NCBI RefSeq assembly: GCF_003334305.1
Contig: NZ_QOWS01000035.1
Direction: 5' to 3' (one strand)
Source of the DNA: Escherichia coli
Lineage (GTDB): Bacteria; Pseudomonadota; Gammaproteobacteria; Enterobacterales; Enterobacteriaceae
DNA: 31,024 bases
The notes beneath the pieces were generated by a model. That model was not told the origin of the DNA. It saw nothing but the letters and a program-made list of their open reading frames with translations, and ran no database searches. Positions within the stretch are counted from its first letter, which is position 1; each line of letters opens with the position of its first letter. Below, in pieces: positions 2,147-7,491 of the stretch. Both the position numbers and the translations under genes were made by a program.

Positions 2147-3436
2147 ATGAAAGTATTAGTGATTGGTAACGGCGGGCGCGAGCACGCGCTGGCCTGGAAA
2201 GCGGCCCAGTCGCCGCTGGTTGAGACTGTTTTTGTTGCTCCGGGTAATGCAGGCACTGCACTGGAACCCGCGCTGCAAAACGTTGCTATTGGCGTGACCG
2301 ATATCCCGGCGCTGTTGGATTTCGCACAAAACGAAAAGATTGATCTGACCATCGTCGGCCCGGAAGCGCCGCTGGTGAAAGGCGTGGTCGATACCTTCCG
2401 CGCCGCCGGGCTGAAAATCTTCGGCCCAACCGCAGGTGCGGCCCAACTGGAAGGCTCAAAAGCGTTTACCAAAGATTTCCTGGCCCGCCATAAGATCCCT
2501 ACGGCGGAATACCAGAACTTCACCGAGGTAGAACCTGCGCTGGCGTATCTGCGTGAGAAAGGCGCGCCAATCGTCATTAAAGCGGACGGTCTGGCTGCCG
2601 GGAAAGGCGTTATCGTGGCGATGACGCTGGAAGAAGCGGAAGCGGCTGTTCACGATATGCTGGCGGGCAACGCTTTTGGCGACGCGGGTCATCGCATCGT
2701 TATCGAAGAGTTCCTCGATGGCGAAGAAGCGAGCTTTATCGTGATGGTAGACGGCGAGCATGTGCTGCCGATGGCCACCAGCCAGGATCACAAACGCGTA
2801 GGCGATAAAGATACCGGACCAAACACGGGCGGGATGGGCGCTTACTCCCCCGCGCCGGTAGTAACCGATGAAGTTCATCAGCGCACCATGGAACGTATCA
2901 TCTGGCCAACCGTGAAAGGCATGGCGGCGGAAGGCAACACCTACACCGGTTTTCTCTACGCGGGCCTGATGATCGACAAACAGGGCAATCCGAAGGTTAT
3001 CGAATTTAACTGCCGCTTTGGCGATCCAGAAACCCAGCCGATTATGCTGCGCATGAAGTCCGATCTGGTTGAGCTCTGCCTGGCGGCCTGTGAAGGCAAA
3101 CTGGACGAGAAAACGTCAGAGTGGGATGAACGCGCTTCTCTCGGCGTGGTGATGGCTGCGGGTGGATATCCGGGTGATTACCGCACCGGTGACGTGATCC
3201 ACGGCCTGCCGCTGGAAGAAGTGGCAGGCGGCAAAGTGTTCCACGCGGGCACGAAACTGGCGGATAACGAGCAGGTAGTGACCAGCGGCGGGCGCGTACT
3301 GTGCGTCACCGCGCTGGGTCATACCGTGGCAGAAGCGCAGAAACGCGCTTATGCCTTAATGACCGATATTCACTGGGACGACTGCTTCTGCCGGAAAGAT
3401 ATCGGCTGGCGCGCTATCGAACGCGAGCAGAACTAA
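2147..3436 (+). CDS. purD: phosphoribosylamine-glycine ligase (GAR synthetase)
   Basis: 429-aa ORF with ATP-grasp-type sequence, recognised as PurD; forms an operon with purH. Confidence 0.96.
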   Translation: MKVLVIGNGGREHALAWKAAQSPLVETVFVAPGNAGTALEPALQNVAIGVTDIPALLDFAQNEKIDLTIVGPEAPLVKGVVDTFRAAGLKIFGPTAGAAQLEGSKAFTKDFLARHKIPTAEYQNFTEVEPALAYLREKGAPIVIKADGLAAGKGVIVAMTLEEAEAAVHDMLAGNAFGDAGHRIVIEEFLDGEEASFIVMVDGEHVLPMATSQDHKRVGDKDTGPNTGGMGAYSPAPVVTDEVHQRTMERIIWPTVKGMAAEGNTYTGFLYAGLMIDKQGNPKVIEFNCRFGDPETQPIMLRMKSDLVELCLAACEGKLDEKTSEWDERASLGVVMAAGGYPGDYRTGDVIHGLPLEEVAGGKVFHAGTKLADNEQVVTSGGRVLCVTALGHTVAEAQKRAYALMTDIHWDDCFCRKDIGWRAIEREQN

Positions 3437-4758
3437 CGCGACAGTTTTGCCAATAGCGTTTTGCGCGTGATCCCTAACTGACGGGCGGCTTCGGTTTTGT
3501 TGCCGCCCGTTTTCTCCAGTGCCGCCAGAATCACTTCTTTTTCGACTTCCACCAGCGGCTGAATATCCTGACTTTGCCCCAGCGGGATCGGCGTACTGGC
3601 AATCGCCAGCGGCAGCTCGCGTTCGGAAATATATTCCCCGGTCAGCAGCACCACCGACCTTTCCACCGCGTTTTCCAGTTCACGAATGTTTCCCGGCCAG
3701 TCGTAGTGGATCAGCAAATCCATCGCCTGTGGCGTAAAGCCTTTTACCGCCTTGCGATTACGCTCGGCAAAACGCTGAAGAAAATGGCTAGCCAGCAGAG
3801 GGATATCCTCCCGCCGTTGCCGCAGCGATGGTACTTCAATCGCCACCACATTCAGGCGATAGTAGAGATCCTGGCGAAAACGCCCGGCATTCACCTCTGC
3901 GGCAAGATCGCGATGGGTCGCCGCAATCAGCCGGACATCAACCGAGATAGTCTGGTTGCTACCGACACGCTGAACTTCGCGCTCCTGAATCGCACGCAGC
4001 AGACGCACCTGCATCATCGGCGAGATATCGCCAATTTCATCGAGAAACAGCGTGCCGCCGTCCGCCTCAACAAAGCGCCCTTCCCGGCGTTTATCGGCTC
4101 CAGTAAACGCCCCTTTTTCGTGACCGAACAATTCAGATTCCAGTAAGGATTCGTTGAGTGCCGCACAGTTGAGCGTTACCAGCGGTTTTTCGCTACGTGC
4201 GCTACTGGCGTGAATCGCCCTGGCGACCAGCTCTTTACCGGTGCCGGAATCGCCGTGGATCAGTACCGTGGCTTCCGATGGCGCGACGAGGGCGATTTCA
4301 CTGAGCAGGTGTTGCATCGCCGGGCTTTTACCGACCATACCGAACTGGCTGGCAGTCACCGCAGGTGTTTCAGCATCAATACTGTGCGTATGCGCGAGCG
4401 CTTTTTCCAGCGTCGCCTGTAGGTTATCGAAATCCAGCGGCTTGATGAGATAATCCAGCGCCCCAGTTTTCAGTGCCTCTACCGCCGTCTCGACGCTGGA
4501 GTACGCAGTCATAATCAGCACCGGAATTGCCGGGTTTAACGCTTTGATCTCTTTCAGCGTGGCGATGCCGTCCATCTCCGCCATTCGCACATCGCAAAGC
4601 ACAAGATCAAAAACCTGTTCCCGCACCTGCTCCAGCGCCTGTCGCCCGCTGTTCGCCAGCGCGACGTTATAGCCCCAGCCGCGCAGTAAAGCCTGCAAAA
4701 TAGTGCAGTGGCTAATGTCATCATCCACCACCAGAATATCGATATTATCGTGCGTCAT
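3433..4758 (-). CDS. zraR: sigma-54-dependent two-component response regulator (NtrC family)
   Basis: 441 aa. Receiver domain (VVDDD...D...K), AAA+ sigma-54 activation domain with Walker A GDSGTGKE and GAFTGA motif, C-terminal HTH. Overlaps zraS by 4 nt. Confidence 0.95.
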
Positions 4759-6131
4759 CCTTGTGGGTCCTTACGCGTAATATTGACCGGAAGCCAGAGG
4801 GTGAACGTTGAGCCTTTTCCCTCCTGGCTTGCGACCTGAATTGTACCACCGTGTTGTTCAACAATATTATGCACGACCGCCAGCCCCAATCCGGTGCCTT
4901 CGGCTTTGGTGGTGAAGTACGGAGTGAAGATGGCTTCAAGCTGATCTGCCGCAATTCCCTTACCGCTGTCGGTAACGCTGATTTTCACGCCCGCGCCGCT
5001 TTCGCTGACCGTCACGCTAATCACGCCATGCTGACCAATCGCCTGAATAGCATTGAGATAGAGATTCAACAGGACCTGAGTCAGCCTGTCCGGATCGGCC
5101 TGAATTTCCGGTAATGTGTCGTTGGCGGTAAAGCGTAACTGGATCTCCCGGCTGTTTGCATCCTGGCTTACCAGCTGTAATGAGTGGTTAATCAGCGTGT
5201 TGAGATCCACCGCCTGCAAAGCCAGATGCGTTGGCTTAACCAGTTCCAGCAACTCGCTTACCACGCGGTTTAAACGGTCGGCTTCTTTCGCCATCACCTG
5301 CGCCAATTGATGCGCTTCTCCCCCTGCTGGCGCGCGTTCGGCAAAGTATTTCGCCAGTCCTTTAATCGAGGAAAGTGGGTTACGGATTTCGTGGGCAACG
5401 CCTGCCGCAAGATGCCCCAGCGCCACCAGCTTCTCTTTGCGCTTCATTTCATCTTGTAGAAGCTGGCGCGAGCGCAGATAGCGGCGATACCAGAAGAATG
5501 ACAATACGCTTGCCAGCAAGACCGTCGCCAGGGCGAAGAGGATAATCAGGGTGTTTCTCTGCTCACGATCTTCGGCACTCACAATATTACTGGCGTCGAA
5601 AGCGATGAAAATTGCTTGTGGTGTTGCGGCATACTGCTGCATATGGCGCATCCGGTGCATTCCAGCAGCAAACATCGGTTGAAACTGGCGATAAATTTCC
5701 AGAACAGGCTCGCCGTCTGCGCTATCGATCCGCCGCCACGCTTCTTCATCTCCAGGATGTAACTGCTGCATTTCCTGCGGGGAATAAAGCTGTTTTCCCA
5801 CCATGCCGGAGTTGCTATGCATCACGATTGTTCCTTGTTCATCCGTGACCGCAAACCAACGTACTCCAGGCTGCCCGGCCATTTCTTCCAGTAAGGCCTG
5901 CTGCTGCGCATGATGCATGCGCATCCCCATGCCGACGCGCGAGCCGGATTCAAGAGCGCGAATAAGTACACTGCCTTTTTCCAGCAGCGTTTGTCTGGCG
6001 GCGGCAGTCTCGCGCCCATAATCGCGAATCACCGTCACCGCAAACAACCCTACCAGCCCAACAATGACCACGGGGAGGATCGCGCTTAACCATTTAGCTA
6101 AGGAGTCTTTAGAACGTTGCATAAAACGCAT
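4755..6131 (-). CDS. zraS: sensor histidine kinase
   Basis: 458 aa. Two transmembrane segments around a periplasmic domain, H-box (HEIRNPL) and HATPase motifs (DxGxG, GxGLGL). No in-frame start further upstream (stop 14 codons up). Confidence 0.93.
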   Translation of the reverse strand: MRFMQRSKDSLAKWLSAILPVVIVGLVGLFAVTVIRDYGRETAAARQTLLEKGSVLIRALESGSRVGMGMRMHHAQQQALLEEMAGQPGVRWFAVTDEQGTIVMHSNSGMVGKQLYSPQEMQQLHPGDEEAWRRIDSADGEPVLEIYRQFQPMFAAGMHRMRHMQQYAATPQAIFIAFDASNIVSAEDREQRNTLIILFALATVLLASVLSFFWYRRYLRSRQLLQDEMKRKEKLVALGHLAAGVAHEIRNPLSSIKGLAKYFAERAPAGGEAHQLAQVMAKEADRLNRVVSELLELVKPTHLALQAVDLNTLINHSLQLVSQDANSREIQLRFTANDTLPEIQADPDRLTQVLLNLYLNAIQAIGQHGVISVTVSESGAGVKISVTDSGKGIAADQLEAIFTPYFTTKAEGTGLGLAVVHNIVEQHGGTIQVASQEGKGSTFTLWLPVNITRKDPQG

Positions 6132-6162
6132 CTTCTTCTTTGCCTGCTCATCCCTTTCTGAC

Positions 6163-6178
6163 AGCAGAAATCATGCCA
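6163..6178 (-). promoter_or_regulatory. sigma-54 promoter for zraSR
   Basis: Minus strand TGGCAT-gattt-CTGCT with GG/GC spacing of 12, about 30 nt upstream of the zraS ATG. Confidence 0.6.
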
Positions 6179-6229
6179 TCTTTTATCAGCGCTTACCCTG
6201 CGCTGTAACACAAAGGCTTAAGTTTCAAT

Positions 6230-6275
6230 GAGTAAAAATGACTCGCTACCCGCAGCAGGCGAGTCATTTTTACTC
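6230..6275. promoter_or_regulatory. ZraR upstream activator site (perfect inverted repeat)
   Basis: gagtaaaaatgactcgc (6230-6246) and gcgagtcatttttactc (6259-6275) are exact reverse complements separated by 12 bp, lying between two divergent sigma-54 promoters. Confidence 0.75.
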
Positions 6276-6317
6276 GTTTATCATGCCAGATTACCCGTCA
6301 TATCAGCGTTTCATCGT

Positions 6318-6333
6318 TGGCACGGAAGATGCA
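6318..6333 (+). promoter_or_regulatory. sigma-54 promoter for zraP
   Basis: TGGCAC (6318-6323) and TGCA (6330-6333), GG-to-GC spacing 12, about 35 nt upstream of the zraP ATG. Confidence 0.7.
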
Positions 6334-6368
6334 ATACCCGAAGTAAGACAACCACTGGAGGATTAACC

Positions 6369-6794
6369 ATGAAACGGAACACGAAAATTGCCCTGGTAAT
6401 GATGGCGCTTTCAGCAATGGCGATGGGATCGACATCTGCATTTGCTCACGGCGGACACGGTATGTGGCAGCAAAATGCCGCGCCTTTGACCAGCGAACAA
6501 CAGACAGCGTGGCAGAAAATCCATAATGACTTTTACGCTCAAAGCAGCGCACTGCAACAGCAACTGGTGACGAAGCGTTATGAATACAATGCCCTGTTAG
6601 CCGCGAACCCACCGGATAGCAGCAAAATTAACGCGGTCGCCAAAGAGATGGAGAATTTGCGTCAGTCGTTAGATGAGTTACGGGTGAAACGAGATATCGC
6701 GATGGCTGAAGCGGGTATTCCGCGCGGAGCCGGAATGGGCATGGGCTACGGCGGCTGCGGTGGTGGCGGTCATATGGGTATGGGCCACTGGTAA
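6369..6794 (+). CDS. zraP: periplasmic zinc-responsive chaperone (CpxP-like), signal peptide, Gly/His/Met-rich C-terminus
   Basis: Internal ATG at 6369 preceded by SD ggagga at 6355-6360. Product starts MKRNTKIALVMMALSAMAMGSTSAFA (signal peptide). The ORF-track start at 6228 runs through the promoter/UAS and is rejected. Confidence 0.9.
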   Translation: MKRNTKIALVMMALSAMAMGSTSAFAHGGHGMWQQNAAPLTSEQQTAWQKIHNDFYAQSSALQQQLVTKRYEYNALLAANPPDSSKINAVAKEMENLRQSLDELRVKRDIAMAEAGIPRGAGMGMGYGGCGGGGHMGMGHW

Positions 6795-6795
6795 A

Positions 6796-7491
6796 TCAGA
6801 ACGTTTTCTCGTTGGGTTGCCAGCGACAGAAATCAGAGTTTGCCACTAACAGTAATTGCGAACCTTCGGGCGCTTCCAGCCATGCCACGCTGACATCAAC
6901 AGAAGAGCGGCTCTGGCGGCGCTCGATATGCGCTATCGCCTGCGAATCTAAATCAGGTTTAATGGTTTGCCCTTCGCAGGTGGTCACGGTCTGTTCCATC
7001 GCATGCCAGCGCCCCTGGCGCAGCACGACTCTCCCCTGACGTAAGGCATCGCTAATCTGGCGGATCTGATCAGCACGATAACGGTATAAATCGATTTGGT
7101 CGTTAGAAAGCTGCTGCTTTTCCCCATCGGATTCACGTTGCATAAAGCTCAGATCACCGCGATCGTCAAAACGCGCGCGAATGTTCACCGGCGGTTTGCT
7201 GTAAACATTGATATTGATGAGCGTGAGGTTATCGCCCTGCCAGCGATACTCTCGCGTCGTGGTATCGCCACTGCGCCACGGGCTAAACACGGCAAGCAGA
7301 TGCACATTATCGCCGCTGTCTTTTCGCCAGATGCGTACCGCGCCCTGGTCTTCAGCAAATCCACTGGCGGTAAAGGGAGGAAGTGAAGAGTTGTGACTAC
7401 AGGCAGTGAGAAACAGAGCGCCTGCCAGCATCAATGATCGACGCCAGAAAGACAAAAGGGGTGAAACCACCCCTTCGTTAAAACTGTTCAC
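6796..7491 (-). CDS. yjaH: putative lipoprotein of unknown function (YjaH-like)
   Basis: ORF with lipoprotein-type signal (WRRSLMLAGALFLTAC, lipobox LTAC). Start is uncertain: GTG at 7497 or 7491, or ATG at 7431. I chose 7491 because it gives 231 aa, the length I recall for YjaH; no clear SD at any candidate. Confidence 0.7.
   Translation of the reverse strand: MNSFNEGVVSPLLSFWRRSLMLAGALFLTACSHNSSLPPFTASGFAEDQGAVRIWRKDSGDNVHLLAVFSPWRSGDTTTREYRWQGDNLTLININVYSKPPVNIRARFDDRGDLSFMQRESDGEKQQLSNDQIDLYRYRADQIRQISDALRQGRVVLRQGRWHAMEQTVTTCEGQTIKPDLDSQAIAHIERRQSRSSVDVSVAWLEAPEGSQLLLVANSDFCRWQPNEKTF
7444..7476 (-). terminator. intrinsic terminator downstream of hupA
   Basis: Minus strand AGGGGTG-GUUU-CACCCCT hairpin followed by TTTTGTCTTTCT, about 30 nt after the hupA stop. 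Confidence 0.75.

Follow-up and report, generated by a model that had tools for sequence, protein, structure and literature searches.

[quoted passage not shown] The same study counted 58 convergent overlaps in E. coli and reported a spike at an overlap length of 4 across 58 genomes. On the basis of the predictions of Lesnik et al. (2001), one embedded Rho-independent terminator was assigned to 19 of the 58 E. coli overlaps and both terminators were found to be embedded in 2 (PMC2174442). In such cases, the hairpin and U-tract of one gene are carried by the codons of its partner.

Related arrangements have been described at the level of the transcript. Excludons, represented by the ExcludonFinder E. 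coli set (NAR 2025; PMC12288877) and by mscL-arfA (PMC10070815), are neighbouring genes on opposite strands whose transcripts overlap. Also, a class of untranslated antisense RNAs in E. coli is terminated by Rho (Adams et al., 2021; Peters et al., 2012, cited there), and its members include bicyclomycin-sensitive, C-rich and G-poor RNA that lies antisense to purD.

The junction between purD and zraR of E. coli has features of all these systems. It is a plain member of the 4-nt class of Lillo and Krakauer, from which it differs in nothing: the two genes lie tail to tail and the tetramer is exactly CTAA. Furthermore, zraR-purD is among the 165 convergent transcript overlaps present in at least 50% of 58 MG1655 transcriptomes (PMC12288877), and like other excludons it is convergent with overlapping transcripts. 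For zraR-purD, however, neither reciprocal expression nor RNase III dependence nor a phenotype is known, and the overlap appears to be short and bounded by terminators. The overlap is already known from the reference annotation, from the 2007 class and from the published overlap list, and the junction is an ordinary compact tail-to-tail one, of a common type. What the present analysis adds is modest, namely a candidate purHD terminator that is embedded in zraR under synonymous constraint, and an opposite strand that would rely on Rho.

The purD-zraR junction

The DNA that was analysed (the window) is a stretch of 31,024 nt from E. coli, and the genes around the junction are arranged in it as follows.

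546 to 2135, + strand: purH coding sequence, gene 1 of the purHD operon (open reading frame list; RefSeq annotation of an identical strain, offset by 101 nt).
2147 to 3436, + strand: purD coding sequence, 429 aa, with its stop codon TAA at 3434-3436 (open reading frame list, RefSeq).
3433 to 3436, both strands: CTAA tetramer common to the purD and zraR coding sequences (sequence, open reading frames; kept across genera).
3433 to 4758, - strand: zraR coding sequence, 441 aa, a sigma-54-dependent response regulator (open reading frame list, RefSeq).
4755 to 6131, - strand: zraS coding sequence, co-transcribed with zraR, with a 4-nt start/stop overlap (open reading frame list, RefSeq).

The sequence gaaCTAAcgc occupies window positions 3430-3439, and the zraR stop codon TAG is the reverse complement of 3433-3435. 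Two bases (3434-3435) are common to both stop codons and four (3433-3436) to both coding sequences. An earlier note on this DNA, prepared from the letters alone, had named the two genes as purD and zraR and had described stop codons that overlap in this manner. The gene identities are right, as judged by the open reading frames, RefSeq and the protein structures, and the overlapping stops are borne out by the sequence, the open reading frames, RefSeq and the ends of the structures in the PDB. The stops share bases in CTAA, and both reading frames are genuine protein genes.

It might be argued that the annotation is an artefact, in that one of the genes really ends earlier and a true overlap is absent. 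We found no point in support of this reading and give it practically no credence. The end of an open reading frame is set by its stop codon whichever start is picked, and the PurD and ZraR frames close with ...IEREQN* and ...LLAKLSR*, respectively. Both C-termini are kept across genera and match the ends of crystallised proteins: the alignment with PDB entry 1GSO (E. coli PurD) covers residues 1-429 and reaches the last residue of that entry, and PDB entry 1OJL (ZraR) terminates exactly at ...LLAKLSR, residue 441. The artefact was rejected on the ends of these structures and of both reading frames. The purD-zraR overlap is real and both stops are true protein ends.

The same overlap is present in the RefSeq annotation of K-12 MG1655, where purD lies at 4204642-4205931 and zraR at 4203320-4204645, and it is likewise annotated in strain E2863, which is 100% identical to a 1.1-kb query around the junction. 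Of 5,426 complete E. coli genomes, 5,421 contain the query region at 90-100% identity, and in 5,419 its coverage is at least 80%. Among the matches listed for these complete genomes, every one is annotated with both purD and zraR.

A scan with PurD, limited to one genome per species, yielded 80 loci, among which zraR adjoins purD in Escherichia, Kluyvera and Citrobacter. Fetched ZraR orthologues revealed the order yjaH-zraP-zraS-zraR-purD-purH in Klebsiella grimontii, Phytobacter diazotrophicus, a record named 'Enterobacter hormaechei', Kosakonia arachidis and Klebsiella aerogenes. The overlap occurs in all 8 of the enterobacterial genera with zraPSR that were examined, and it is 4 nt long in 7 of them (Escherichia, Kluyvera, Citrobacter, Klebsiella grimontii, Phytobacter, the 'Enterobacter hormaechei' record and Kosakonia). 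In K. aerogenes (locus L087, 3822-3832), purD encodes 431 aa and the overlap with zraR is 11 nt, because the loss of one base near the end of purD shifts the stop codon 7 nt downstream. This species provides an example of overlap growth through stop displacement. As judged from these sequences, the exact length of the overlap is not rigidly fixed. Since the overlap is kept across the genera that carry zraPSR, it was inherited with the zraPSR block.

In relatives that lack zraPSR (Enterobacter asburiae, Leclercia, Pantoea, Erwinia, Yersinia, Serratia and others), yjaH is convergent with purD across a spacer of ~25-135 nt. A comparison of window 3433-6794 with loci L005-L038 and L083-L087 shows that some Enterobacteriaceae carry the zraP-zraS-zraR block and others do not, and that yjaH and purD flank it wherever it occurs; where it is missing, the short purD-yjaH spacer contains hairpins or REP-like sequence. 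At the other edge of the block, the zraP stop codon TAA (6792-6794, + strand) and the yjaH stop codon TGA (complement of 6796-6798) are one base apart (window 6792-6798). The yjaH-zraP pair is also in the ExcludonFinder list (PMC12288877), and a strong Rho region with a Rho score of 17 lies antisense to zraP at K-12 4201402 (Adams et al., 2021; PMC7815308).

Length variants of ZraR in E. coli span 436-469 aa. Nearly all are due to internal indels, and differing C-terminal ends were rejected on this ground as their general explanation. Two singleton alleles (P0003 and P0004) lose the stop: the zraR TAG (3433-3435) is converted to a codon for Tyr or Gln, and ZraR continues for another 15 or 28 residues, encoded antisense to purD. 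In the Gln allele, the same substitution makes the purD stop TGA instead of TAA, and purD still has a stop codon. Among E. coli ZraR proteins of 436-448 aa, the commonest variants are 437, 439, 443 and 445 aa long and carry short indels in a repeated 'EQVR/EQV' of the receiver domain (residues ~41-48; window ~4615-4640, - strand), a pattern that suggests slippage at a short tandem repeat.

A candidate purHD terminator within zraR

There is no intergenic DNA between purD and zraR, so each transcript must run into the coding region of the other gene. The earlier note had argued as much, and its argument agrees with the presence of zraR-purD in the published list of transcript overlaps. The note had also claimed that no space is left for terminators. 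This claim stands literally, in that intergenic DNA is absent, but it does not extend to the coding regions, where a terminator-like hairpin lies in zraR and a Rho region lies antisense to purD. The first of these is the following feature.

3481 to 3517, + strand: candidate intrinsic terminator of purHD, in zraR codons 415-426 (fold, synonymous constraint, eight genera).

The stem of the hairpin is formed by 3481-3489 and 3502-3510 (ACGGGCGGC and GCCGCCCGT), and a T-tract, TTTTCTCC, is located at 3510-3517. The order on the + strand is ACGGGCGGC-TTCGGTTTTGTT-GCCGCCCGT followed by TTTCTCC (3481-3517), with a loop of 12 nt. The hairpin starts 45 nt past the purD stop codon and the whole element spans 45-81 nt past it. 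Eight of the 9 bp in the stem are G-C pairs, which corresponds to the stable GC-rich stem-loop of an intrinsic terminator. Folding of the + strand RNA from 3475 to 3525 gave -22.7 kcal/mol (z = -3.5), and 0 of 200 shuffled sequences were as stable. The U-rich tract reads UUUUCUCC in E. coli and in Kosakonia, UUUUUUC in five of the other seven genera and UUCUUUC in K. grimontii, and it follows the stem on the + strand only, the opposite strand being without one. Because the E. coli tract is imperfect, termination may be partial.

The bases of the hairpin also encode, on the opposite strand, residues E415-R426 in the Fis-type helix-turn-helix of ZraR. When this peptide was recoded synonymously 5,000 times, with weights from local codon usage, 0.42% of the recodings were as stable as the real sequence and ~6% yielded some hairpin followed by TTTT. 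The peptide (EKT, GG..AA) favours structure, and the real sequence is near the extreme of what it allows. A terminator and promoter scan of 2600-4300, in which loops could be no longer than 8 nt, returned one unrelated site (4086-4111); the hairpin at 3481-3510 escaped it on account of its 12-nt loop. An Rfam scan of 2900-4000 gave a meaningless sub-threshold lncRNA as its sole match, indicating that no known RNA family is represented in that interval.

Synonymous constraint was assessed in a codon alignment of zraR from 8 genera with 81-94% amino-acid identity. Across the gene, 46 of 294 conserved degenerate codons are invariant, a background of 15.6%, and between codons 417 and 425 the count is 8 of 9. 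No window elsewhere in zraR scores nearly as high. The sole variable codon, T422 in the loop, is represented by all four Thr codons, which indicates that sites are otherwise saturated. By a rough binomial calculation, 8 invariant codons out of 9 against the 15.6% background would arise with a probability of ~3e-6 per window and <1e-3 over ~290 windows, an optimistic figure given that the eight aligned sequences are related and that preferred codons (GGC, AAA, GAA, AAC) inflate invariance.

A hairpin followed by a T-run is present in 8 of the 8 genera, 37-46 nt past the purD stop codon. Two polymorphisms of the stem in E. coli, A3481G and C3508T, each produce a G.U pair in purD-sense RNA and an A.C mismatch in zraR-sense RNA. 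Among relatives without zraPSR, a simple scanner detected a hairpin and T-run in the purD spacer of 18 of 33, so intrinsic termination is frequent, not universal, for the purHD operon. In E. albertii NBRC 107761 (L003, 3305-4640) and E. coli GU2018_CL13 (L088), zraR is frameshifted or annotated as a pseudogene, yet the 3′ hairpin and CTAA are intact.

We predict with moderate confidence that 3481-3517 is the intrinsic terminator of purHD, or at least the structure that fixes the 3′ end of its mRNA. Specifically, RNA polymerase would pass the purD stop codon and proceed 45 nt antisense into zraR, where it would meet the GC-rich hairpin and then UUUUCUCC (3481-3517), encoded by the helix-turn-helix codons E415-R426. 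Most polymerases would terminate at this hairpin, or at least the mRNA 3′ end would be fixed there. The resulting purHD 3′ UTR would be ~80 nt long and complementary to the last 27 codons of zraR, with a predicted 3′ end at window 3514-3518, equivalent to K-12 ~4204560-4204564 on the - strand. In comparison with the embedded terminators of Lillo and Krakauer, the purHD candidate adds synonymous constraint across eight genera, and termination is predicted.

Published resources were also consulted for this 3′ end. Adams et al. (2021) give a curated Term-seq list of dominant ends only (~900-1,200 per condition), in which the interval 4203-4205 kb is empty, and the TERMITe paper lists neither purD nor zraR. 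Literature searches on a purHD terminator and on purD antisense returned nothing relevant.

Rho and the zraSR transcript

The opposite transcript involves two further features.

3100 to 3432, - strand: zone of read-through on the zraSR strand, where the RNA is C-rich and untranslated and lies opposite the 3′ end of purD (Adams et al., 2021; GC skew).
6163 to 6178, - strand: sigma-54-like -24/-12 element upstream of zraS, TGGCATGATTTCTGCT (pattern match, 2 mismatches).

The element at 6163-6178 is the likely start of the zraSR transcript. Sigma-54-like matches in the window are not more numerous than expected by chance, so its assignment to zraS rests on its position and on what is already known of the zraP and zraSR promoters. 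Two sigma-54-like -24/-12 boxes face outward, one at 6318-6333 (+ strand) for zraP and the other at 6163-6178 (- strand) for zraSR. A long inverted repeat at ~6230-6275 (GAGTAAAAATGACTCGC...GCGAGTCATTTTTACTC) lies between these boxes and is presumably a ZraR binding site. RefSeq carries a 42-aa hypothetical open reading frame at 6238-6366.

At the other end of the zraSR unit, Adams et al. (eLife 2021; PMC7815308, supplementary file 2) located a region of Rho termination antisense to purD, at K-12 4204911 on the + strand (Rho score 4.28, p = 5.7e-8). Upstream and downstream coverage there is 74 and 17 reads in untreated cells and 172 and 169 reads with bicyclomycin (PMC7815308); read-through in these published data rises with bicyclomycin, as is characteristic of Rho. 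By conversion from the K-12 annotation, the coordinate maps to window ~3167, or ~266 nt past the zraR stop codon, and since it was derived from 800-nt coverage windows it denotes a region, not a site. The RNA upstream of the release zone, antisense to purD and past the zraR stop, is untranslated, C-rich and G-poor. Between 3060 and 3340, GC skew on the + strand ranges from +0.17 to +0.35, the value at 3100-3179 reaching +0.35, so the - strand RNA has more C than G.

Past the zraR stop (3130-3440), the - strand folded into no more structure than shuffled sequences and contained no hairpin followed by a U-tract, so we rejected an intrinsic terminator for zraSR. A synonymous-constraint scan of purD, conducted on both zraR-carrying and zraR-less lineages, found no island in the last 100 codons; in the genera that carry zraR, 13.8% of these codons are invariant, compared with 19.7% gene-wide. 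The lack of an island at the purD 3′ end led us to reject an embedded sequence element for zraSR termination as well.

The published data, which are coarse in resolution, fit Rho acting on untranslated antisense RNA. Polymerase would pass the zraR stop codon into antisense purD, the RNA that it makes there would be untranslated and C-rich, and Rho would end the zraSR transcript within a few hundred nt. We infer that the bicyclomycin-sensitive RNA is read-through from the zraSR promoter. Alternatively, an unmapped promoter within zraR could be its source.

Competing readings and their implications

We consider it probable that each unit ends within the opposing gene and that the mechanisms differ, purHD ending at its embedded hairpin and zraSR through Rho. 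A simpler account, which we hold to be unlikely, dispenses with a dedicated terminator: the hairpin would be kept for codon preference in the helix-turn-helix or for zraR mRNA structure, and Rho and polymerase collisions alone would end both transcripts. Such an account agrees with the lack of a 3′ end at the hairpin in the curated list of Adams et al. (2021). Furthermore, the peptide predisposes to pairing between GGC GGC and GCC GCC, the reverse strand folds too (-20.1 kcal/mol, z = -2.6), and the + strand RNA is C-rich past the hairpin (GC skew -0.35 at 3500-3579), so that Rho could act there. However, among the conserved codons elsewhere in zraR, just 4 of 25 for Gly and 5 of 31 for Ala are invariant, the T-tract follows the stem on the + strand only, and it is only in the purD-sense RNA that the stem stays paired with either polymorphism. 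Also, a metagenome scan for the E415-R426 peptide, restricted to sequences in which the first Gly codon is not GGC, returned only four matches, all of them distant activators (44-51% identity) without a convergent purD, which encode the same peptide with different codons. These observations count against a hairpin maintained for zraR alone.

If both units end inside the partner gene, the embedded terminator and the Rho region would make the mutual invasion short, and it appears to be bounded at ~80 nt on the purHD side and ~270 nt on the zraSR side. The earlier note had seen in the junction a route for interference or antisense pairing between a purine operon and a zinc-stress regulator. Such a coupling is a possibility, and nothing that we found supports it. 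As a functional excludon, purHD switched on by purine limitation would repress zraSR, or zinc-induced zraSR would repress purHD, through head-on collision of polymerases or through cleavage of the paired 3′ ends by RNase III. Such a mechanism is compatible with the terminator and Rho anatomy, to which it adds a regulatory purpose. In its favour are the ExcludonFinder entry (at least 50% of 58 MG1655 transcriptomes), the retention of the overlap in 8 genera and the complementarity of the predicted purHD 3′ UTR to ~80 nt of zraR mRNA. The overlap of neighbouring transcripts is unavoidable with overlapping coding sequences, however, and any co-expression of such genes counts as an excludon by definition. 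The apparent confinement of the invasion to ~80 nt and ~270 nt, the drift of the overlap length (11 nt in K. aerogenes) and the existence of zraR stop-loss alleles all speak against a regulatory function, as does a literature search with both gene names, which returned no report of purHD-zraSR crosstalk. Moreover, coverage of the zraSR strand in LB is low (74 reads per 800 nt), which makes an effect on purHD unlikely. We therefore regard a functional excludon as distinctly improbable.

A more specific proposal, in which we place even less belief, is that the embedded purHD terminator is deliberately leaky and that the junction acts as a one-way valve. Read-through during purine starvation, together with the ~80-nt antisense 3′ UTR, would then lower the synthesis of ZraS and ZraR. 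If this were true, the envelope and zinc stress response would be tied to purine status, and upkeep of the terminator would freeze nine helix-turn-helix codons of ZraR across the Enterobacteriaceae.

The overlap itself carries little weight as a discovery, since it is annotated and catalogued. The junction serves rather as a teaching example of dual coding, in which nine codons of a DNA-binding domain would also spell the hairpin and T-tract for a convergent operon. If the zraR 3′ end is recoded or deleted, as in knock-out collections and codon-optimised constructs, the purHD terminator may be lost and purHD mRNA changed, and analyses of synonymous-site evolution should mask such junctions.
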